Notes: generated by a model not told the origin, from the letters alone. 55,845 nucleotides of DNA from Candidatus Saccharimonadia bacterium (GCA_038245115.1 JBBRSS010000007.1:1-55845); one strand, 5' to 3'. Shown: positions 1 through 9,657, counted from the first letter of the stretch. Program-made: numbers and translations.

Positions 1-8
1 CTCCGCCA
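1..8 (+). tRNA. Probable 3' end (CTCCGCCA) of a tRNA lying upstream of the window (Asp or Ser type); attL core
   Basis: Window starts CTCCGCCA (G discriminator + CCA), followed by a terminator-like hairpin; the TCCGCCA core recurs at 5715-5721 and 8423-8429 inside tRNA-Asp-like 25-mers. Only 8 nt visible. Confidence 0.55.
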
Positions 9-151
9 AGAATATGGTTCAGATCCGACCCGTTCCCTTAAAGTGCATACTATAAGGAGCGGGTCGTTTCTATTTGCTTGAAATGTCATGAAATGAGCCT
101 AAATCCGGCATTCCCATTCACTATGGCAATGGAATTCGAACTGGCTTAGTT
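2..151 (+). repeat. Left arm (B), copy 1; homologous to 5715-5852
   Basis: TCCGCCAAGAATAT...GATCCGACCCGTTC...GGGTCGTTT...GCTTGAAATGT.ATGAAATGAGC shared; exact 32-mer ACTATGGCAATGGAATTCGAACTGGCTTAGTT at 120-151 and 5821-5852. Confidence 0.95.
26..75 (+). terminator. Intrinsic-terminator-like hairpin just after the tRNA end
   Basis: CGACCCGTTCCCTTA (26-40) pairs with TAAGGAGCGGGTCG (53-66), followed by TTTCTATTT; a variant copy lies at about 5739-5771. Confidence 0.55.
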
Positions 152-1489
152 AAACTTTTTAGACCGTGGTTTTCGCTCTAAATAAACCTTTTGATCTTTG
201 AGGAATAGTTCGCCATTTACATATTTCAGAATCTCTCGCTTTTCTTCTCGGGTTCCGTTTTGTAGGACATACTTTGCATAGGCTTTCAGATCAATCGCTG
301 GTTTCTGTATTAACTCATCGCCGGTATAGCCGAGGACACCATTGAATCGTTGATAGCGTTCGAGTTCGTCCTTGAATTGCTCCTGTGCACCGATTTCGTC
401 CAGTTCTAGGTCATCAATCAGCCTTAAGAGCTCATCCATGAGGTCACCTTCACGGATGTATGGCTGTATACAGTCTAGGTCATTAGCTCTACCGCAGTGG
501 TAGTAGACATATCGTCTAATTTCTCCTGTGGTTATGAGTCTTTTCATGTGTTCTTCAGCAGTTATGCCTGTCTTACAGGCTCCACACTTGAGTATTTTAG
601 TGAAGCTAAATTCTTTGCTACCTGTGCGTAGTTTTGGGGCTACAGTAAGCTGAGCTTGCACCAGATCGAACAACTCCTTAGTAATAAGCGGTTTATGTTT
701 ACCCTGATGCATCTTTTCATTGGTTTTTGGGTATTGAAACTCGCCGTAGTAGAAAGGATTTTGCAGTGTTCGATAGATATGGCTTAAGACCATTCGTTTG
801 CCCTGCCTACTCGTAAAGTCTATTTCATCCAGCCATCTTTTTACATCACGGCCTGTGTAGGCCTGTTTGGCGACTCGCTCAAACATTTCTGCCATGATTG
901 GTGCTCGTTCTTCGTCAATAATAATCTTTTCTTCGCCTAAGCCATTGTTAAAATATCCGATCGGAGCCTGACCCGGTCGCCAGCCATTGGCGGCTTTGTT
1001 GTGAAGGCCTCGGATAACGTTCAACCCTCTGTTGTCATTCTCCAGTTTAGCTTGAGAGCCGAGGATCATCAGCAGGAACTTCTCGTTGGGCGAGTTGGTG
1101 AAGGTTTGCCCATGGGTACGAATCTCCGTTAACTTCCCCTGATCCATTAAATCTACCAGAATACCTAAATCTCCAGCGTTCCTGCTCAGGCGATCAGGAG
1201 CCCATGTCACAATGCCGTTGAAGTAGCCAAGCTGGATGTCCTTTATGAGTCGGTTATATACAGGACGTGTACCTGATTCTTTGGAAGAATGGCTTTCTTT
1301 GCGTACTTCAGCTATTTCAATGCCCCAATGATCGGCCAAGAGCTCCATTTCTTTGATTTGTTGCTCAATTGAGAGGGCTTGACGCTCATCCTGTTCGCTG
1401 GATTTACGAGCATACAGACACCAGCGGACCGGTGCTGTTTTTGGTGTATTTTGTACCTGTTGGGATAAGGTTGATTCCATCAGGTACAA
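146..1489 (-). CDS. Large serine recombinase (resolvase + recombinase + Zn-ribbon); start possibly 1480
   Basis: LYARKSS catalytic Ser motif, SIEQQ, WAPDRLSRN, APIGY, NPFYYG, H.PLI..ELF, CGAC...YYHC...C zinc ribbon. Confidence 0.95.
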   Translation of the reverse strand: MYLMESTLSQQVQNTPKTAPVRWCLYARKSSEQDERQALSIEQQIKEMELLADHWGIEIAEVRKESHSSKESGTRPVYNRLIKDIQLGYFNGIVTWAPDRLSRNAGDLGILVDLMDQGKLTEIRTHGQTFTNSPNEKFLLMILGSQAKLENDNRGLNVIRGLHNKAANGWRPGQAPIGYFNNGLGEEKIIIDEERAPIMAEMFERVAKQAYTGRDVKRWLDEIDFTSRQGKRMVLSHIYRTLQNPFYYGEFQYPKTNEKMHQGKHKPLITKELFDLVQAQLTVAPKLRTGSKEFSFTKILKCGACKTGITAEEHMKRLITTGEIRRYVYYHCGRANDLDCIQPYIREGDLMDELLRLIDDLELDEIGAQEQFKDELERYQRFNGVLGYTGDELIQKPAIDLKAYAKYVLQNGTREEKREILKYVNGELFLKDQKVYLERKPRSKKFN

Positions 1490-1541
1490 GGTACCGCAAA
1501 TACGGTGTAAGTCTAGAGTTAAAAATGTTATTATTTAACTT

Positions 1542-2807
1542 ATGAATGAAGAAACAAAATATATAGATATCACACCCCATAGGAGCATCCTCACAAAAAT
1601 TAGCCAAACAGGTTATTCAATACAAGAAGCCTTATCCGAACTAATTGATAACGCAATTGACGCCAGAATAAGCGAAACAGTTCTAAATGTTACTGTAGAC
1701 ATATCAGCAGATTCTATTGTAGTTACTGATGATGGAACGGGTATGACAGAAGAACAAGCTGCTAAATCCATCCGTCTTGGGTTTTCTGAGAAAAAGCAGC
1801 AACTTGGTGAGTTTGGGCTTGGACTAAAAACATCAACATCGTTTTTGGGACATGGCTTCACCCTTACTACCTCGCCTGTTGGGTCAGACGAAGAGTATTC
1901 AATAGTTTATGATGCAGATGATTGGCTTGAAAACGGAGATTGGTACAAATATCCGTTTGTTGTCAGAAAAGGCGTTGATGTCGAAAAGAGCGGAACTAGA
2001 GTTGAAGTTCATAAATTGCGTGTTCATATTACGGATAAACTACTAGCTAGTATCAGAGAAGAATTTGGCCTACGATTTGGTCCGTTCATTCAAAACAAAG
2101 AGCTCAATCTTGTCTTTAATGGCGAACCTTGCCCGCCATTTGTTCCATCGATACTTGATGGTAATAAAACAGAATTTTCGTTTGAATTTCCTGGCGGTAA
2201 AGCTTGGGGCTGGTGGGGCTATCAATTGAGTGGTTTAAACAAGAGTTACTACGGTTTTCATACCTATAGGAGAGGACGACTCGTTACAACATACGATAAG
2301 GTGGGGCTAACTCCTAACCAAGACATCAAACAGATAATTGGCGACTTGCACGTAGAAGGAATCCCTATAAATCACGACAAGAAAAACTTTGCTAAAACAT
2401 CGGAAGGTTATAGAAATCTTGAAGATCAAATGAGGGTTTACTTCAAGCCATTTGAAAAGAAACCGAAACGAATCTTAAGCGGCTACGCTGCGTCTGCGGG
2501 ACGTGTACGTGGTACAGTCAAACTGATTCGTACTACGGCACATGGTCCTGATATTCAAAAAATACTAGAAAATGTTAAGCACGGTGACATTATTGTTACT
2601 GAGATGACTCGACCACAGTATCTCTTGGCAATCCGACGCTCGGCTGGAATTATCACTGATCTTGGAGGGAACCTCTGTCATGCGGCAATTGTCTCACGAG
2701 AATTCAATATTCCTTGTGTCGTTGGCACCCAGAACGCCACGGCACTACTAGCCGAGGGTAAAAAAGTTATTCTTGATGGAAATGAAGGGTATATTTATGA
2801 AGATTGA
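1542..2807 (+). CDS. GHKL (MORC/MutL-like) ATPase fused to C-terminal PEP-utilising phosphohistidine swivel domain
   Basis: GHKL motifs ELIDNAIDA, DDGTGM, GEFGLGLK, GT; C-terminus G.AASAG.V.G...GDIIVTEMT.P...TDLGGNLCHAAIVSREFNIPCVVG matches the PEP-utiliser mobile domain with its catalytic His. Confidence 0.9.
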   Translation: MNEETKYIDITPHRSILTKISQTGYSIQEALSELIDNAIDARISETVLNVTVDISADSIVVTDDGTGMTEEQAAKSIRLGFSEKKQQLGEFGLGLKTSTSFLGHGFTLTTSPVGSDEEYSIVYDADDWLENGDWYKYPFVVRKGVDVEKSGTRVEVHKLRVHITDKLLASIREEFGLRFGPFIQNKELNLVFNGEPCPPFVPSILDGNKTEFSFEFPGGKAWGWWGYQLSGLNKSYYGFHTYRRGRLVTTYDKVGLTPNQDIKQIIGDLHVEGIPINHDKKNFAKTSEGYRNLEDQMRVYFKPFEKKPKRILSGYAASAGRVRGTVKLIRTTAHGPDIQKILENVKHGDIIVTEMTRPQYLLAIRRSAGIITDLGGNLCHAAIVSREFNIPCVVGTQNATALLAEGKKVILDGNEGYIYED

Positions 2808-3960
2808 TCCACATATTCTAAAGTTCCCACACTCATTACCGAATGATGAAGCCGACTTCATGATCTACTATCCATACAAGTTCCCGAAGGTAATAGAATT
2901 TTACGAACAGAAGGCTCAGGAGCTTTATGACAAACCTGAAGCTTATGCCCAGTTTGTTCAAGATGAGTTTAAGGAACTAGAAGCAGCCGTAAATGAAGTA
3001 AACGACGAGTACGGTAAAGGTAACAAGGACGATCTCAATTTCTTAGTTAGCATAGACCAAAAGTTTAATAAGGTATTTTGTTTCAAGTTCTGGGTGATAA
3101 ACTATGTTTTTGCCGATGGACTGATCCATGAGTTTTACGTTGACCAACTAAAAGCATTTTCTCGAAAAATGGTTGATGTAATTGACGACATCGAAGAATA
3201 CGAACAAAGAGTCATCCAGATCCAACGCGATTTACTGCAAACCGATTACGCAGACATCTACCTAGTACAAGCTCTTCATGGCGTTGTAGTCATGAGCTTC
3301 TTGGAGAATGACGAGTTCTCAAAAGAGATAATTTCAAAAATTATTCCACTAATTGATGAACATACTGATAAGAATAACGAAAAGATCATTGAACTATGGA
3401 AGCCAATCGTTGATAAAATTCTCGATCCAGACGATCATACCTATGACCCACTTACTGTGTTTCCGCCAGATTTCGACGAGAAGTACGAAACCTTACTTGA
3501 CCTACCTCCACTCCAGCTACCAAGAAATCAGGTTAGAATGCGTGGGATACCGTTCCCTATGTATAGCTTTTTGAGTCACACGATTGAATTCCGTGAACAA
3601 AACAAGGCTCTTAAGGAGCGTCACGACAGCATGATAGGGATAATTGAAGACATCTTTACTGAAGCCAGGGGCAAACTCAATGAGGAAGAATATGCCGACT
3701 TCCGTTTGTCATATGAGATGGCCAGAAACTTCTCTATGTCCAAGGATATTATGGGTAATGTTGACCCGATACTTGTACCGGTTTGGGAGGGCGATGTGCA
3801 CAGGAGAATCAACGAAATACTATCCAAAGATCAAGAGGTTCGATATCCGCACGTCAGCCACGCATCAATGTTTGGCAGCTTTGCCTGGTATTTGCCACCT
3901 GATTTAAAAGCTAAAGTAATGTCGCCCGACACATCACCGTTTAATTTTGAGGAGCTTTAG
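2797..3960 (+). CDS. Unknown acidic, predicted alpha-helical protein (388 codons)
   Basis: Long ORF overlapping the upstream stop; no recognisable motif. Confidence 0.8.
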   Translation: MKIDPHILKFPHSLPNDEADFMIYYPYKFPKVIEFYEQKAQELYDKPEAYAQFVQDEFKELEAAVNEVNDEYGKGNKDDLNFLVSIDQKFNKVFCFKFWVINYVFADGLIHEFYVDQLKAFSRKMVDVIDDIEEYEQRVIQIQRDLLQTDYADIYLVQALHGVVVMSFLENDEFSKEIISKIIPLIDEHTDKNNEKIIELWKPIVDKILDPDDHTYDPLTVFPPDFDEKYETLLDLPPLQLPRNQVRMRGIPFPMYSFLSHTIEFREQNKALKERHDSMIGIIEDIFTEARGKLNEEEYADFRLSYEMARNFSMSKDIMGNVDPILVPVWEGDVHRRINEILSKDQEVRYPHVSHASMFGSFAWYLPPDLKAKVMSPDTSPFNFEEL

Positions 3961-3961
3961 A

Positions 3962-4735
3962 ATGAGTGAACGAATTGCACCAATGTCGGATGGACGTATA
4001 GAGATGCATGTTCAACGACATGACGAGCACGACAAAGGACATCTCACTCCTGAAGGTCATGAACACGCAAAACAAACCGCAACAGAGAAGGTGAATAAAT
4101 ACCTTGATGTGAATCCAGAAACACATTTTATGATTATTTGTTCTGACCAAGTGCTTGATGAAGCGGAACCAGAATTTGGAGGAATTCGTGCCAGAGAAAC
4201 CGCCCAAGACATTATTGGTACTGTGCGTGATGCCCTTGATGAAAGAGGATTGCCCGCAGATCATTTATTTGGAAGTGACGGTGATCCAGCTACTGTAAGC
4301 CCCGTATTGCGCGAAGCTGGTATTTTCTCACAGGGATTTATGAAACATTTAAGAGAAAATTACCCCGATGATAACGCCTGGTCACTATACTATCAAGATG
4401 CTGACTCTGATACACGAGTTGCGATGGGTGGAGAAAGCCCAATAGACTTAGCAAACCGCATGGACTACATGATAAAAACTGCCGAAATGGTCGGAGCTTC
4501 ATTACACAAGGTTCCGGGTAAGGAAGATTCGCCCTTACTCGTTTGGATAGTTGGTCACGGAGGTGGGCTGGATTCGTACCTACACCATTATGCCGATGTG
4601 CCGATTGATCAATTGGGTTTTGATTTTAGCGGTGGTTTTACTCTGCGCTCTTCGCCTGAACATGGCGTAGTCGCTGACGTAAAAGGTACAGAATATCCTG
4701 TTAGAACAGACGAGGTTATGAGTCTCCCCAGATGA
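3962..4735 (+). CDS. Histidine phosphatase (phosphoglycerate mutase-like) superfamily protein
   Basis: N-terminal RHD(E) motif, LT.EG.E.A, R(A)RETA, L.E, late VGHGG His motif. Confidence 0.8.
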   Translation: MSERIAPMSDGRIEMHVQRHDEHDKGHLTPEGHEHAKQTATEKVNKYLDVNPETHFMIICSDQVLDEAEPEFGGIRARETAQDIIGTVRDALDERGLPADHLFGSDGDPATVSPVLREAGIFSQGFMKHLRENYPDDNAWSLYYQDADSDTRVAMGGESPIDLANRMDYMIKTAEMVGASLHKVPGKEDSPLLVWIVGHGGGLDSYLHHYADVPIDQLGFDFSGGFTLRSSPEHGVVADVKGTEYPVRTDEVMSLPR

Positions 4736-5556
4736 GTTTTATAAAATTCTTTAACGAAATTAAGGTGGATGATCTTAACTTGGTTGGGGGCAAAGGACTA
4801 TCTCTGGGCAGAATGGCGAATGAAGGTTTCCCGGTGCCTCCAGGATTTGTAATCACAACTGAGCTGCATAAAGATTTTAAAAGTAAAAACACTATTGAAG
4901 AGCGAGAAAAAAGCGACCTTTATGCAGCATTTGATGACTTAGGGGCAACTAGGGTTGCCGTACGATCATCAGCAATTTCTGAGGATTCAGAGAAGGCATC
5001 TTGGGCTGGACAATTTGAGAGCTACCTAAATGTCACCAGAGATGATCTAACAGGAAGAGTAATGGATTGCTGGAATTCCGTTAAGGGGGCCAGTGAGTAC
5101 GCTAAGACGCAAGGCCTCGAAGAAGAAGAGCTTGCTCTGGGGGTGGTCGTCCAAAAGATGGTAGATAGTGAGGTGTCCGGAGTCGCATTTAGTGTTAATC
5201 CTCTGAACCACAATAGCGACGAAATCATGATTGAAGCTACCTTTGGTCTTGGTGAGCTGCTCGTCCAGGGCATGGTAACACCCGATAACTATGTAGTGTC
5301 TAAGCGCGACAAAAGAGTAGTAAGCAGCAAGATTGTGGCGAAGACAAATATGCTGGTGTACCAAGACGGTGAAACCAAGGAAATGCCCGTGAGTGACGAT
5401 ATACAGGAAAAACCCTGCTTATCCGAAGAACAACTATACGAATTAAGTGCAACAATCTGCCAAATTGAGGATTACTATAAAAGCCCACAGGATATTGAAT
5501 GGGCACTCCAAGAAGATAAATTCTATATTGTTCAATCAAGACCAATCACAGTATAA
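4732..5556 (+). CDS. Stand-alone PEP synthase/pyruvate phosphate dikinase N-terminal ATP-grasp domain
   Basis: VGGKG..LG, PVPPGF, AVRSSA..ED...SWAGQFESYLNV, VVVQKMV, SGVAFS, GLGE..V.G..TPD, PQDIEWA, QSRPIT; ends with no His or pyruvate domain. Confidence 0.92.
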   Translation: MSFIKFFNEIKVDDLNLVGGKGLSLGRMANEGFPVPPGFVITTELHKDFKSKNTIEEREKSDLYAAFDDLGATRVAVRSSAISEDSEKASWAGQFESYLNVTRDDLTGRVMDCWNSVKGASEYAKTQGLEEEELALGVVVQKMVDSEVSGVAFSVNPLNHNSDEIMIEATFGLGELLVQGMVTPDNYVVSKRDKRVVSSKIVAKTNMLVYQDGETKEMPVSDDIQEKPCLSEEQLYELSATICQIEDYYKSPQDIEWALQEDKFYIVQSRPITV

Positions 5557-5577
5557 CTACCTTTTTTAAAGTGTCCG

Positions 5578-5721
5578 ATTTTGTCCCATTTACACTAGTA
5601 GCCACTTAAAATAATGGGACACGGCGTATATAGGCTTTCTGTGTCTCATTTGTCTCGTTTTTATCTGTTAAGTGTCAAAGAATGAGACAACTACACAGTT
5701 CCAGACCCGTGTGTTCCGCCA
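5578..5721 (+). repeat. Right arm (A), copy 1; homologous to 8287-8429
   Basis: ATTTTGTC(C/T)CATTTAC...AAAATAATG(G/A)GACACGGC...CATTTGTCTC...TTTATCTGT...GTGTCAAA...TGAGACA...CCCGTG.GTTCCGCCA shared between both copies. Confidence 0.95.
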
Positions 5722-5852
5722 AGAATATAGCTCGGATCCGACCCGTTCTCCTAAAGGAGGGGGGTCGTTTTCATTTAGCTTGAAATGTTATGAAATGAGC
5801 TGTATTTTGCCACCCCGTTTACTATGGCAATGGAATTCGAACTGGCTTAGTT
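5715..5852 (+). repeat. Left arm (B), copy 2
   Basis: Alignable to 2-151, with an exact terminal 32-mer. Confidence 0.95.
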
Positions 5853-5880
5853 GACACAGCTATATGCAAACAAGTACGAT
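5851..5880 (+). promoter_or_regulatory. Sigma70-type promoter for the AbrB-ABC operon
   Basis: TTGACA (5851-5856), 18 nt spacer, TACGAT (5875-5880). Confidence 0.55.
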
Positions 5881-5900
5881 ATATATGAATAGTATGATTT

Positions 5901-6143
5901 ATGAAAGAGAATAAAATGAAATTACCAAGATTAATAGGAACAACGACTGTTGGTGAACGGGGACAGATAGTTGTACCTGCCGATGCCCGCGCTGAATTAG
6001 GTATAAATGCAGGCGACAAGCTGCTTGTTTTTAAAGCCCCTATCGATGGAGCGTTAATTATTGCCAAGCCTGAAACTTTCGAAAAACTGATCGCTCACAT
6101 GGGGGAACAGTTTAAAAATATGACTGAGCATGATGCAAAATAA
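5901..6143 (+). CDS. AbrB/MazE/SpoVT-family transcriptional regulator
   Basis: TTVGERGQIVVPADARAELGINAGDKL signature. Confidence 0.9.
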   Translation: MKENKMKLPRLIGTTTVGERGQIVVPADARAELGINAGDKLLVFKAPIDGALIIAKPETFEKLIAHMGEQFKNMTEHDAK

Positions 6144-7395
6144 ACTAAACAATGCCGTATTAACTACCCGCACAGCATTTTTTATTGCGGCTAAAAGCAT
6201 CCGCCGTGGTTCTTTGGCAGTAAAGATAGTCACTGTTTTCATCCTACTGCTAACTTTTCTTAATTTGCTAGTTGTTGGAGGCTTATTAAATGGTATTACT
6301 AATGATGTGGGAGCTAAGGTGAAAACCTCTCTGTCCGGTGATGTGTATATTAAGCCAAACAAAGGGCATACGTACATCCAAAATACCGGTGACATCCTTT
6401 CTATTCTTGATAGAACTACTGGCGTACACTTTTCTCCCAGACTGACCAGCGGAGCAACAATAGAATATGGTGATGCAACCGCCGAACAGAAGCCGGCAAG
6501 AATAAACACAGTGGTAGCCGGGGTTGATCCTGCTCTAGAGTCGCAGGTTACCACAATTACCAAACGAGTGGTCTCTGGGGCGTTCCTTGGTGCCGATGAA
6601 ATAAACTCGATCGTGCTGGGGTCATCACTAGTAGATGGCTATACGACCAGTGAAACGAGTAATGGCGAAACACTAGGTAGTGTAGTAGTCGGCGACAAGG
6701 TGCGTATCCGTTTTCCTACAAATAGTTCTCCGCAAGAATTTACAGTTGTCGGTATTCTAAACTCTAAATCGGCGGTAGTTGACCAACGGGCATTTATTAA
6801 TCAAGCGACGTTGAGCAAATTATTGAGGACGGGCAGTGGTGACTATTCGGAAATTGCAATTGTAGCGGGTGACGATAAAGCTGCATCGGCTCTTATCCAA
6901 GAGTTACGTGCTGCTCCAGACGCCGGCAAGAACAATGTCAAATCGGCTGATGAAGCAATACCCTCAGCAATCGCTGATGTCCAAAAGGCTTTTGGGATGA
7001 TTGGGAATATAGTAGGCGTCACTGCTTTATTAGTAGGTATCGTGACGATTTTTGTCATTGTATTTGTTAGCGCGTCTAGTCGCCGAAGGTACTTAGGCAT
7101 ATTGAAAGCTCAGGGTATTTCAGCGCCAACTCTTGTTTTGTCGTATATTCTTCAGATCGTGTTTTATGTATTGGTTGGAGTGGCTCTTGGGCTAGTGGTA
7201 CTCTTTGCAATCTTGCAGCCATTTTTTGTGTCACATCCTATTTCGTTGCCGATGGCGGATGGTCAACTATTTTTACCAGTCCAATATGTTACTACGCGCA
7301 TCGTTATATTGTTTGTGGTATCGATCATTTCCGCATTTATACCCGCTTGGTTAATTATTCGGCAAAATACGCTTGATGCGATATTGGGGAGATAG
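6130..7395 (+). CDS. FtsX/MacB/LolE-type ABC transporter permease
   Basis: One N-terminal TM helix, large extracytoplasmic loop, three C-terminal TMs, RRRYLGILKAQG motif. Confidence 0.9.
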   Translation: MMQNKLNNAVLTTRTAFFIAAKSIRRGSLAVKIVTVFILLLTFLNLLVVGGLLNGITNDVGAKVKTSLSGDVYIKPNKGHTYIQNTGDILSILDRTTGVHFSPRLTSGATIEYGDATAEQKPARINTVVAGVDPALESQVTTITKRVVSGAFLGADEINSIVLGSSLVDGYTTSETSNGETLGSVVVGDKVRIRFPTNSSPQEFTVVGILNSKSAVVDQRAFINQATLSKLLRTGSGDYSEIAIVAGDDKAASALIQELRAAPDAGKNNVKSADEAIPSAIADVQKAFGMIGNIVGVTALLVGIVTIFVIVFVSASSRRRYLGILKAQGISAPTLVLSYILQIVFYVLVGVALGLVVLFAILQPFFVSHPISLPMADGQLFLPVQYVTTRIVILFVVSIISAFIPAWLIIRQNTLDAILGR

Positions 7396-7404
7396 GCTAA
7401 AATC

Positions 7405-8085
7405 ATGATTAATATACAATCTGTTACGAAAAATTTCACAACCGGGGAGGTTGTTACCAAAGTCCTAAAGGGTATTAATTTTGAGGTGCCAAAGGGGCAG
7501 TTCATGTCTATAATGGGCCCGTCTGGTGCCGGTAAGTCTACCTTGCTTTACCAAATGAGTCTTTTAGACAAGCCAACGAGTGGATCGGTTATTATTGACG
7601 GAGTTGATGTTTCACGGCTTAGCCAATCCGAAGCGACACGCTACCGCTTAAAAAATTTTGGTTTCGTGTTCCAAGACTCTGCACTAATCCCTGAATTCAC
7701 AGCTCTTGAGAATGCCTTGCTACCGAGCCTAATGCAAGGAGACGACTACGCAAAGGCTAGGCGGAAGGCTATTAAAATATTTACATCTTTTGGTATGAAT
7801 GAGCAGATCAACCACTTGCCGAGTCAACTTTCTGGTGGCGAACAACAACGCGTAAGTGTAATCAGAGCAATTGTAAGAAAGCCAAAGATCTTATTCGCCG
7901 ATGAGCCGACTGCAAGTCTGGACACCGCAAGATCACATGATTTAATGATGGCACTGTTAGAGCTGCATCGGGAAGGCCAAACAATTATAATGGTTACGCA
8001 CGAGGAAGAATTCGCCAAAATGGCTGATAGAATGCTGTCTATCCGCGACGGGCGGATCGAGAATGATACTATTCTAAAAAAATAA
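7405..8085 (+). CDS. LolD/MacB-type ABC ATPase
   Basis: GPSGAGKST, LSGGEQQR, ILFADEPT, VTH. Confidence 0.95.
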   Translation: MINIQSVTKNFTTGEVVTKVLKGINFEVPKGQFMSIMGPSGAGKSTLLYQMSLLDKPTSGSVIIDGVDVSRLSQSEATRYRLKNFGFVFQDSALIPEFTALENALLPSLMQGDDYAKARRKAIKIFTSFGMNEQINHLPSQLSGGEQQRVSVIRAIVRKPKILFADEPTASLDTARSHDLMMALLELHREGQTIIMVTHEEEFAKMADRMLSIRDGRIENDTILKK

Positions 8086-8286
8086 CGTTTTTAGTGTTGC
8101 TGAACCACAGTTTTGTCAGCCTCTAACTTTCTGCAACACTCTGTCTAAACTTTGCAGCCGTTTGTTTTTGTGGTTTGGTTGTTCTTTGAGCCGGGCCGCG
8201 TAAGCGGCTGGGCTCATCTTTAGAGCTAAATGGATTCGCTTGAAGCAAAACTTTAAAACCAGCGGCAGCTCTTTTTATGGGGGCCT

Positions 8287-8429
8287 ATTTTGTCTCATTT
8301 ACTCGAGTAGTCGCCAAAATAATGAGACACGGCACATATAGGTGTTCTATGTTTCATTTGTCTCTTTTTTATCTGTATAGTGTCAAAAAGTGAGACAGCA
8401 ACCCAGTCCCAGGCCCGTGCGTTCCGCCA
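8287..8429 (+). repeat. Right arm (A), copy 2; attR-like end of the composite island
   Basis: Alignable to 5578-5721; ends GTTCCGCCA. Confidence 0.95.
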
Positions 8430-8469
8430 GTGTTTGTCTTGAATTATTCAGGCCGGGCGCTGGTTTTTT
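8427..8469 (+). terminator. Probable displaced native tRNA terminator
   Basis: CCAGTGTTTGTCTTGAA / TTCAGGCCGGGCGCTGG stem (with G-U pairs) followed by TTTTTT immediately after the last att core. Confidence 0.45.
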
Positions 8470-8484
8470 GGTTATAATGTAGGC

Positions 8485-9030
8485 ATGAATGTTCTGGCAG
8501 CAATCGGTTTAATTGTGGTGCTGGCGGCGCTGGCATTATTTGTGATGGTAATGGTGGTTTACGGCTATTTTATGTTGCGCAATCGGGTGCCGTATGTGGT
8601 GTTGCCGGATGGAGCGATGAAGGCGGTGGTGGATAGGCTTGGGGTGCGAGACGGGGATTTTGTGTATGATCTCGGTTGCGGCGACGGCAGGGTGATTGCC
8701 GCATTGCAAAGCGATAATTCAAATGCTCAATACATTGGGGTCGAGAATAATTGGGTGGTTTGGGGCTTGGCAATGCGGCGTTTGCGGGGGAGAGCTAAGT
8801 TGGTTCGTGGAGAGATATCGAAGGCGAATCTTCAGGAAGCCACGCGGGTATTTGCCTATCTGGGACCGAAAATGATGGCTGAGCTGGAGCTGAGGTTTGA
8901 GATGGAGCTGCCGAGCGGGGCGCGGCTGGCCAGTGTGCAGTTCCCCCTACCGAACAGGAAGCCGGACGAAGAAGTGGAGCTTACGGGTAGCGCCAGCCAT
9001 GCTGCAAGGCTCTACATATATAATTATTAG
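8485..9030 (+). CDS. Class I SAM-dependent methyltransferase with N-terminal TM helix
   Basis: YDLGCGDGR motif I, GVE, FAYL. Confidence 0.85.
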   Translation: MNVLAAIGLIVVLAALALFVMVMVVYGYFMLRNRVPYVVLPDGAMKAVVDRLGVRDGDFVYDLGCGDGRVIAALQSDNSNAQYIGVENNWVVWGLAMRRLRGRAKLVRGEISKANLQEATRVFAYLGPKMMAELELRFEMELPSGARLASVQFPLPNRKPDEEVELTGSASHAARLYIYNY

Positions 9031-9657
9031 ATGGCAGCTAAACGAAAAGTAATTATCACTCACGGATGGAACGATAGCCCGGCTAACCTCTGGATAAGTT
9101 GGCTGGCCGGCGAGCTGGAGGCGAGGGGTTTTGAAGTGATCGTGCCAGCGATGCCGAGACCACGGGTGCCGAAGCTCGATGTGTGGCTCAAAACGTTGTC
9201 TGATGCGGCAGGTGAACTTGATGGGAATACGACGTTGGTAGGATATTCCCTTGGTACGCCAACGACATTGCGGTTCATAAATGATTATGTAAAGGACGTC
9301 AAAATAGCCGGTCTGGTCCTGGTGGCGGGGTTTGGTGATGGGATTATGGACAAACCCGGGCCGCTGTTTGACCCGCCGCTGGAATTTGATCGTATTACCC
9401 GGCGGGCGAAAACACGCGTCGTAATTTATTCGAATAATGATCCGTTGATTGCTCCTAAGTACAGCCAGCAACTGGCGGTTAATTTGGGGGCTCGGGAGCT
9501 GATTGTGATGGGCGGCGGGCATTTTATGGGTAAAAATCACTTCCCTAGTTCAATAGACCGGTTGCCGGCAGCGCTGGAGGCGGTGTTGAGTGCTTATCCG
9601 AGGGGGTGGAGGTATAGACTAGGAGGTGTCTGGCGGAGTTTGGTTCATCGTTTTTGA
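9031..9657 (+). CDS. RBBP9/YdeN-family alpha/beta hydrolase
   Basis: THGW, W..WL..EL, GYSLG nucleophile elbow, S.ND, GGHF. Confidence 0.85.
   Translation: MAAKRKVIITHGWNDSPANLWISWLAGELEARGFEVIVPAMPRPRVPKLDVWLKTLSDAAGELDGNTTLVGYSLGTPTTLRFINDYVKDVKIAGLVLVAGFGDGIMDKPGPLFDPPLEFDRITRRAKTRVVIYSNNDPLIAPKYSQQLAVNLGARELIVMGGGHFMGKNHFPSSIDRLPAALEAVLSAYPRGWRYRLGGVWRSLVHRF

Follow-up and report, generated by a model that had tools for sequence, protein, structure and literature searches.

What built the island that occupies positions 1-8429 of a contig from Candidatus Saccharimonadia bacterium, and at which gene was it inserted? The contig, 55,845 nt long and referred to below as the window, is contig C7 (G000:C7:1-55845) of a 1.31-Mb genome in 38 contigs, and its base 1 is the first base of the contig. 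tRNA genes are textbook targets of tyrosine integrases. The island described here carries a large serine recombinase (LSR) and consists of two small elements, only the first of which bears a recombinase; we consider it likely that they are stacked at a tRNA-Ser gene's 3' end and that they were inserted by the mechanism set out below.

Anatomy of the island

The island has the layout core-B-[recombinase, cargo 1]-A-core-B-[cargo 2]-A-core, where A and B are attachment-site arms and the core is TCCGCCA. The two B arms (2-151 and 5715-5852) are 77% identical over 151 aligned positions (E 1e-26 in the 1.31-Mb genome), with blocks that reach 88-95%. The two A arms (5578-5721 and 8287-8429) are 83% identical (E 1.6e-35), with 84% identity in a 114-nt block (5608-5721 and 8316-8429). 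The core starts at 2, 5715 and 8423; a fourth TCCGCCA, at 3462, lies inside a cargo open reading frame (ORF) and is apparently a chance copy. The guanine-plus-cytosine (GC) content is 0.38-0.48 over 1-8500 and 0.51-0.61 in the next 11.5 kb, and the mean for the island (1-8429) is about 0.43 against 0.55. The same layout had been drawn in an earlier, sequence-only reading of the window, and the repeat alignments, the core positions and the drop in GC put all arms and cores where that reading had placed them.

Element 1 (9-5721) is autonomous in build and carries a four-gene cargo operon, and element 2 (5722-8429) possesses both arms and lies head to tail with it. As read from the sequence, the B arm of element 1 contains a long hairpin (26-66) with a T run (67-75) behind it, an arrangement that resembles a terminator for the tRNA. 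The distal block of this arm (113-151) is conserved and ends one codon inside the recombinase ORF. In the B arm of element 2, a terminator-like site is predicted at 5745-5765 and a promoter-like site facing cargo 2 at 5851-5880. The A end AGTTCCAGACCCGTGTGT together with the core forms a 25-mer that is identical in 5 of 10 right ends from relatives and in one copy on contig C5 of the same genome. The type of A-core-B junction seen at 5715-5721 recurs on C5 and in locus L054 of a relative.

The inner part of the A arm (5578-5690 and 8287-8400) contains the paired 9-mers TGTCYCATT and AATGRGACA, a stretch that could be a protein-binding site or a promoter/operator. The inner 30-60 nt alone match many genomes of the class at 80-96%. 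The distal block of the B arm (113-151, 5814-5852 and the copies on C5 and C13) contains GGAATTCGAAC or GGGATTCGAAC, which reads on the opposite strand as a T-loop-like GTTCGAATCC and follows closely after the recombinase stop codon; it may have a function or be a tRNA relic. An Rfam scan of 1-9000 at E <= 1 returned no RNA family, and ARAGORN found no tRNA in the window.

The recombinase of element 1

The ORF next to the first B arm matches three Pfam domains: Resolvase (1.3e-19, residues 25-169), Recombinase (7.3e-14, residues 193-281) and Zn_ribbon_recom (4.7e-06, residues 296-356), the last two above their curated cut-offs. The predicted product is an LSR, and the large-serine-recombinase family proposed earlier is borne out by these domains. 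The true start is likely the ATG at 1480; several LSRs of relatives align only from residue 4 onward. The stop codon of the ORF is at 146-148, which leaves 138 nt to the core. The best-aligning solved structures are SPbeta YokA (PDB 9dxh) and the TP901-1 integrase (3bvp). In the alignment the motif YARKSS, which we take to hold the catalytic serine, stands opposite YLRRSR of YokA.

The genome contains four matches to the Resolvase domain, on C3, C5, C7 and C22, and a fifth recombinase gene on C13 that is cut by the contig start and retains only the C-terminal part. A whole-genome search with PF00589 found a single tyrosine recombinase, at C6:19132-19659, far from the island, and none on C7. 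The genes on C22 (15668-16705) and C3 (62433-63242) encode distant LSRs, 29-35% identical, in open frames of 522-544 aa, and they are convergent with tRNA-Leu(CAA) and tRNA-Leu(TAG).

The target is a tRNA-Ser gene

The contig begins with CTCCGCCA, and each of the genome's three tRNA-Ser genes has this sequence as its 3' end. No other tRNA gene of the genome shares it; tRNA-Asp ends in GAGCCCGCCA, that is, in CCCGCCA and not in TCCGCCA. ARAGORN finds 44 tRNAs in the genome, and tRNA-Ser(GGA) is not among them. In the congeneric genome G006, the tRNA-Ser(GGA) gene is found 1.37 kb upstream of the sequence homologous to window position 8430. Homology between G006 and the window begins at 8426-8430, and the other side of the G006 locus is syntenic into the end of contig C13, an end whose sequence is repeated at many other contig ends. 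The terminator-like hairpin at 8450-8466 is conserved in G006, downstream of its tRNA-Ser(GGA).

A tRNA-Ser gene is found beside the recombinase in other genomes too. We fetched 19 loci with an LSR 77-94% identical to that of the window, from metagenome-assembled genomes (MAGs) titled Candidatus Saccharimonadia, Saccharimonadales or Saccharibacteria; by these relatives the genome of the window belongs to the Candidate Phyla Radiation (Patescibacteria). At 16 of them a tRNA-Ser gene lies on the 3' side of the LSR (GGA in 9, CGA in 6, TGA in 1), and the other three loci are on short contigs that break off at the LSR. In 15 of the 16 the final 8 bases of the tRNA also belong to the B arm, the sixteenth being a decayed copy that has kept only about 12 bases of that arm. 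Beside the B arm, the tRNA-Ser of relatives ends in the same eight bases as those that open the window. Copies in G017 (LSR 89% identical) and G051 (75%) are also at tRNA-Ser(GGA), and those in G024 and on contig C13 of the window's own genome are at tRNA-Ser(TGA).

Judged from these sequences, the target is a tRNA-Ser gene, and its isoacceptor is most likely tRNA-Ser(GGA), situated just beyond the contig start. The sequence-only reading had named tRNA-Asp, a choice overturned by the CTCCGCCA end, the missing GGA isoacceptor and the 16 of 19 relatives, which all indicate tRNA-Ser. Its broader proposal of an LSR family at the 3' end of a tRNA gene agrees with these 16 loci, the other three contigs being cut, and needs correction only in the identity of the tRNA.

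The tRNA-Asp assignment was based on the two 25-mers that end the A arms, reported to match the E. coli tRNA-Asp 3' end at 20 of 25 positions, a count obtained by hand alignment. When the 44 tRNAs of the genome itself are compared, the better of the two 25-mers matches tRNA-Cys at 18/25, tRNA-Lys(CTT) at 17/25, tRNA-Asp at 16/25 and each tRNA-Ser at 15/25, where the match to tRNA-Ser consists of the last 7 bases (the core) and 8 of the other 18. Because several tRNAs of the genome match the 25-mers and only tRNA-Ser ends in CTCCGCCA, the likeness is generic and not specific to Asp. The tRNA-like character of the 25-mers (15-18/25) thus stands, but they are not remains of the target tRNA. As the alignments place them, they are part of the elements' own attachment-site arm of about 140 nt, which travels between hosts. 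Displaced fragments of the target tRNA were considered as the source of the 25-mers and ruled out by the conservation of the ~140-nt arm across hosts.

Related elements in the genome and the class

The element family is not confined to the window. On contig C5 (minus strand) the order A-core-B-[LSR, one ORF]-A-core runs off the contig end, and on C13 the order tRNA-Ser(TGA)-core-B-LSR is cut by the contig start. These copies, together with stacks in L054 and L097, are the further arms and cargos that the sequence-only reading had suggested looking for. When ten elements with an intact LSR (that of the window and those of nine relatives) are compared, no protein other than the LSR occurs in every one. 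The same seven-gene cargo is present in three species, and element lengths range from about 2.7 to 20 kb.

Across the order, LSR matches at E <= 1e-20 come from 18 of 53 genomes and fall at 27 loci. At 22 of these the LSR 3' end has a convergent tRNA gene (Ser, Asn, Gln, His, Leu, Pro, Val or Arg) beside it, the orientation being read by hand from the coordinates. The five loci without such a tRNA are the window (at a contig start), the C5 copy (inside an array), L027, L032 and L033. Of 401 genomes of the class, counting G000, 34 contain A-core-B sequence.

Some features of these copies deserve separate mention. The LSR copy on C5 (C5:62344-63675; L035, L112) is 82-83% identical and has an in-frame TGA that divides it into ORFs of 299 and 159 aa; it may be a pseudogene. 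The unit upstream of this element (C5:63827-67334; L112 8249-11334) encodes an RVT_1 protein, a 481-aa zinc-ribbon protein and a 211-aa protein. The best PADLOC matches of its reverse transcriptase (RT) are to generic RT, Cas1-fused RT and DRT-type models. This unit runs off the contig end and, by the gene order of relatives, probably continues to the tRNA-Ser(TGA) on C13. LSR contigs L061 and L064 are filed under Burkholderiaceae and Betaproteobacteria MAGs; mis-binning is likely, because L061 has the tRNA-Arg/Ser/Ser/Ser cluster of the Saccharimonadia loci. Contigs C4, C8, C13, C15, C16, C21, C22, C33, C36 and others share end sequences, and one 30-mer, with its reverse complement, is found at roughly ten of these ends; the assembly is therefore broken by a repeat in many copies or by strain mixture.

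The second unit lacks a recombinase

By tblastn there is no recombinase in 5722-8429, and Pfam gives no match for either of the two longest ORFs on the antisense strand (169 and 81 aa). Both arms are present, so the tandem stack with a non-autonomous second unit, as first described from the sequence, is confirmed. The B arm of element 2 matches that of element 1 to a point one codon beyond where the LSR stop codon lies; from there on the two sequences differ. This end of homology at the LSR stop points to loss or replacement of the recombinase gene in element 2.

Units without a recombinase and with the same arms also occur at tRNA-Ser genes in L097, L100, L101 and L054. The layout of L054 is that of the window, an LSR unit followed by a 1.6-kb unit without an LSR. 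At L097 the tRNA-Ser(GGA) gene is followed by a B arm and four A ends in succession, and an LSR is absent. In L100 a 36-nt B start and a 28-nt A end surround genes for an aminotransferase and a phosphoenolpyruvate (PEP) carboxylase. L101 contains ParB_N, bAvd and a reverse transcriptase, in addition to a C-terminal LSR stump of 20 aa. Mobilisation of element 2 in trans may be possible, at roughly even odds or less.

Junctions and a model for insertion

Alignment of the relatives gives left junctions of the form ...GGGTTCGAATCCCTCCCTCTCCGCCA | AGAATATAGTTC...GACCCGT..., and right junctions of the form ...ATGAGACA-N9-AGTTCCAGACCCGTGTGTTCCGCCA | host, the latter found in 10 of 16 relatives within the fetched flank. 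The host sequences beyond the right ends are unrelated to one another, and several form a hairpin with a T run. The sole identity between the junction partners is (T)CCGCCA, 6-7 bases. GTTC, A, CCC and the core stand at corresponding positions in the A end and in tRNA-Ser. Right-end core variants are CCCGCCA in L052 and TCCACCA in L065. If these variants predate insertion, we infer that exchange occurs within the last two or three bases of the core, the CCA of the tRNA.

In the model that we favour, an excised circle would carry attP, composed of A arm, core and B arm. The LSR would pair attP with the 3' end of tRNA-Ser, and strand exchange would take place inside (T)CCGCCA. The tRNA would be left intact and would gain a new terminator, since the B arm opens with a hairpin and T run; the native terminator would remain at 8450-8466. 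Because the host-side half of the site is unconserved, recognition of the target would rest mainly on the tRNA half. The A end copies positions of the tRNA 3' end in register, so each junction would remain a usable target at which further elements could stack. Anatomy, recombinase family, target and recurrence in relatives are observed; the crossover position, the order of insertion, trans-mobilisation and any activity today are inferred. Element 2 would be a derivative that lost its recombinase gene almost exactly at the stop codon, and it would move only via a recombinase supplied in trans or within the composite.

Weighing the model

Several observations weigh against this explanation. The tRNA lies outside the assembly, and its placement upstream relies on synteny, on relatives and on a match of eight bases. 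A clean empty site is lacking for this locus: G006, the only genome sharing the right flank, has other DNA there. Only weak dyad symmetry is seen by eye around the core, where clear inverted half-sites are expected of LSRs, and AGTTC and GACCCGT form direct repeats on both sides of it, again by eye. No gene common to the compared elements offers a candidate recombination directionality factor. The att-proximal motifs of element 2 differ from the consensus by four transitions, and a DNA search with cargo 2 in 400 other genomes of the class found no second copy of the cassette, returning only short gene-level matches (about 72% over the AbrB gene, and ABC motifs); one weak match, in the unpublished genome G340, is given no weight here. 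The segment that G006 has between tRNA-Ser(GGA) and the conserved terminator (G006:C19; L005 3182-4556) is 1.37 kb long and includes, on the opposite strand, a gene related to AIR synthase; no arms can be recognised in it.

The four transitions and the failure to find the cassette elsewhere also speak for the alternative that we rate highest, namely that the island is now one fixed unit in which element 2 decayed in place, the internal A-core-B is a scar and nothing is mobilised in trans. We rate it as a serious contender, at somewhat below even odds. It would account for the transitions, three at the A end and one at the B start, in motifs whose consensus is identical in many LSR-bearing elements, and for the failure to find cargo 2 as a unit elsewhere. 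Decay is also documented in the family: L065 has an LSR truncated to 90 aa and has lost its B arm, and the C5 recombinase carries its in-frame TGA. Given its four transitions, element 2 may be a fixed remnant. However, the units without an LSR retain exactly the att-proximal pieces (L100 and the second unit of L054), which is odd for neutral decay, and they recur in four relatives with quite different cargos. Moreover, an intact 447-aa LSR lies only 4.2 kb away, and there is at least one further copy in the genome.

A second alternative is joint entry, in which two circles were fused by homologous recombination between their arms and the heterodimer was integrated once through one attP. The arms share 77-95% identity in blocks of 39-150 nt, which would suffice for homologous exchange now and then, and one integration avoids any need for attL or attR as targets. 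Canonical LSRs of the phiC31/Bxb1 type are not known to use attL or attR as targets. Here, however, the host-side half sites are unconserved, so attL and attR may well serve, and stacking recurs with different partners on C5 and in L054 and L097, the last with four A ends in a row that are easier to obtain by repeated insertion. Joint entry is an unlikely explanation.

A classical tyrosine-integrase island with displaced 3' fragments of the target tRNA, the reading behind the tRNA-Asp idea, is the form that islands at tRNA genes typically take (PMC4383910, in the passages cited) and would suit 25-mers that match several tRNA 3' ends of the genome at 15-18/25, but it is highly improbable, being already contradicted by the enzyme content (no tyrosine recombinase in or near the array, the genome's only one being that on C6) and by 25-mers that match tRNA-Ser only at the last 7 bases and 8/18 others, belong to a ~140-nt arm conserved between elements of different hosts and differ from a tRNA-Asp ending in CCCGCCA.

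Searches for activity

The contigs of four public runs (X1-X4) were aligned to 1-9500; X1 is the probable source, with all 30 bins covered. The contigs of X1 contained no circle-junction, empty-site or single-unit-loss joint, and rare forms would drop out of contigs; this contig-level null in the public runs is no evidence against excision. The circular A-core-B joint that the sequence-only reading had proposed to look for was absent from the contigs of all four runs, as were empty-site and single-unit-loss joints. The joints that were listed, 52>151, 202>723 and 5593>5697, look like chimeric placement of related copies. X2 and X3 contain relatives of the LSR and the arms, and one contig in each runs past 5721 into unrelated sequence, which fits the boundary of the element. 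X4 gave three short pieces at low depth within 271-3752, with no differences from the window; the stretches that they leave uncovered carry no information.

Exact-pattern scans of metagenome contigs gave 0 matches to the host flank 8430-8463 and 0 to the A-core-B junction. In viral contigs the A end had 0 exact matches, and no relative of the LSR was present. Within the limits of exact matching, no free circles, empty site or phage link were found.

Features and cargo genes

The features of the island are listed in Table 1. The first gene of cargo 1 matches HATPase_c_3 (2.8e-17), Morc6_S5 (1.4e-07) and PEP-utilizers (2.1e-24), and in PADLOC it has weak GHKL matches only. Taken together, the four genes of cargo 1, an unusual operon whose last gene is a stand-alone PPDK_N domain, look like a split phosphotransfer system of the PEP-synthase/dikinase type tied to a MORC ATPase. 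PADLOC identified no known defence system in cargo 1, and in cargo 2 only generic matches to ATP-binding cassette (ABC) ATPases.

Table 1. Features of the island and its right flank, in window coordinates
Feature	Position	Strand	Basis or remark
Last bases of the target tRNA gene, CTCCGCCA	1..8	+	contig begins here; core TCCGCCA 2-8
B arm of element 1	9..151	+	repeat families D2, D3, D5, D7; four-copy alignment
Predicted large serine recombinase, 447-aa ORF from TTG	146..1489	-	Pfam domains
GHKL/MORC-type ATPase fused to PEP-utilising mobile domain (cargo 1, gene 1)	1542..2807	+	Pfam
395-aa protein (cargo 1, gene 2)	2773..3960	+	no Pfam match, no PADLOC match
Histidine-phosphatase-like protein (cargo 1, gene 3)	3947..4735	+	Pfam His_Phos_1 7.8e-05, barely over curated cut-off
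PPDK_N, PEP synthase / pyruvate phosphate dikinase-type ATP-binding domain (cargo 1, gene 4)	4732..5556	+	Pfam 3.8e-78
A arm of element 1	5578..5714	+	repeat alignments; conserved tRNA-like end AGTTCCAGACCCGTGTGT at 5697-5714
Core TCCGCCA between elements 1 and 2	5715..5721	+	A-core-B junction, attP-like
B arm of element 2	5722..5852	+	homology to the B arm of element 1
AbrB/MazE-type DNA-binding protein (cargo 2, gene 1)	5901..6143	+	Pfam MazE_antitoxin 5.2e-09
FtsX-type ABC permease (cargo 2, gene 2)	6130..7395	+	Pfam FtsX 6.2e-12
ABC transporter ATPase (cargo 2, gene 3)	7405..8085	+	Pfam ABC_tran 2e-34
A arm of element 2	8287..8422	+	end departs from family consensus by three transitions
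Distal core TCCGCCA of the island	8423..8429	+	GC rises directly beyond; G006 homology starts 8426-8430
Host flank, probably the native tRNA terminator, displaced 8.4 kb by the island	8430..8475	+	hairpin 8450-8466 and T run

Implications

The whole LSR subfamily described here uses tRNA-Ser genes of several isoacceptors. The stacking of minimal elements offers a simple picture of how accessory genes may be gained and swapped in the tiny genomes of the Candidate Phyla Radiation, among them possible defence systems, a module of the diversity-generating retroelement type in a relative, transporters and metabolic enzymes. A wider proposal, which we put forward tentatively and hold to be less likely than not, is that LSRs, and not tyrosine integrases (of which this genome has a single one), are the main builders of tRNA islands in Saccharimonadia. 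An A end that mimics tRNA would make each insertion a new target, cassettes without an LSR such as 5722-8429 would be captured, shuffled and exported in trans on an open-ended accretion platform, and small circles would pass between cells by natural competence. The 25 Saccharimonadia tRNA-Ser genes that were compared hardly differ at the 3' end, so the insertion site may exist in Saccharibacteria generally. The LSR could serve as a tool for inserting DNA at a defined, harmless site.

Comparison with known systems

Insertion by an LSR at a tRNA gene is rare but precedented. In the passages cited here and below, the Islander paper of 2014 states that targeting of tRNA genes by serine-family integrases was not known (PMC4383910), and Ghinet et al. 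(2011) describe serine-recombinase integration into tRNA genes as rare, their examples being phiRSM1 at a tRNA-Ser 3' end and eight actinomycete integrative and conjugative elements (AICEs) of Mycobacterium at tRNA-Leu (PMC3218068). Among the attB sites listed in a 2023 survey of Mycobacterium prophages, tRNA sites occur only with tyrosine integrases (PMC10654092). Our literature searches found no paper describing these elements in Saccharibacteria or Patescibacteria.

phiRSM1 shares with the window a serine recombinase at a tRNA-Ser 3' end, but it is a filamentous phage, and its enzyme is called "resolvase-like" in the title of the cited paper; the Mycobacterium AICEs differ in being conjugative, with replication and transfer genes. 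Stacks with recombinase-less units are not described for either in the cited passages (PMC3218068). The elements of the window are by comparison minimal, consisting of arms, recombinase and free cargo. Islander-type islands resemble them in the tRNA 3'-end target, the regeneration of the tRNA and the tandem arrays; they differ in using a tyrosine integrase and in carrying a long fragment of the tRNA gene, where the identity here is 6-7 bases (PMC4383910).

The comparison with an integron-like platform, made in the sequence-only reading, is apt in that promoter-poor cassettes accrete side by side at one site. In other respects it is loose. No tyrosine integrase lies near the array, the window contig has no Phage_integrase (PF00589) match and so no IntI, and no attI/attC anatomy is apparent in the ~140-nt arms, where no dedicated attC search was made.

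Two other systems come nearer. McMurdie et al. (2011) described islands with a CcrB-like recombinase stacked at the transfer-messenger RNA (tmRNA) gene of Dehalococcoides, part of them without an integration module, and likened them to the staphylococcal cassette chromosome (SCC) and to accretion of cis-mobilisable elements (PMC3146451). Like the elements studied here, these ssrA islands have a serine recombinase, low GC, a position at the 3' end of a tRNA-like gene, tandem stacks with short direct repeats between them, members that lack the module, and no transfer genes (PMC3146451). They differ in their target, the tmRNA T-loop as opposed to the CCA end of tRNA-Ser, and in host phylum and element size, which is 2.7-20 kb here; furthermore, dsiB always overlaps attL and is accompanied by a small recombinase, dsiA, in a six-gene module (PMC3146451). 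In the window, by contrast, the LSR stops 138 nt short of the core and there is no second conserved gene. The genome's own tmRNA is on C17, not at the array.

SCC/SCCmec and pseudo-SCC elements are alike in that LSRs insert cargo at the 3' end of one conserved gene, with stacking, a target repeat at each junction, recombinase-less units and no transfer machinery (described in part in PMC3146451). Their target is a protein gene, rlmH (orfX), in contrast to tRNA-Ser here. Ccr enzymes act as a CcrA/CcrB pair or as CcrC. The nearest solved relatives of the window LSR are SPbeta YokA and the TP901-1 integrase, and the likeness to the Ccr systems noted here is one of layout. By analogy at this level, SCC and pseudo-SCC elements and the Dehalococcoides ssrA islands are closer analogues of the tRNA-Ser elements than integrons are.

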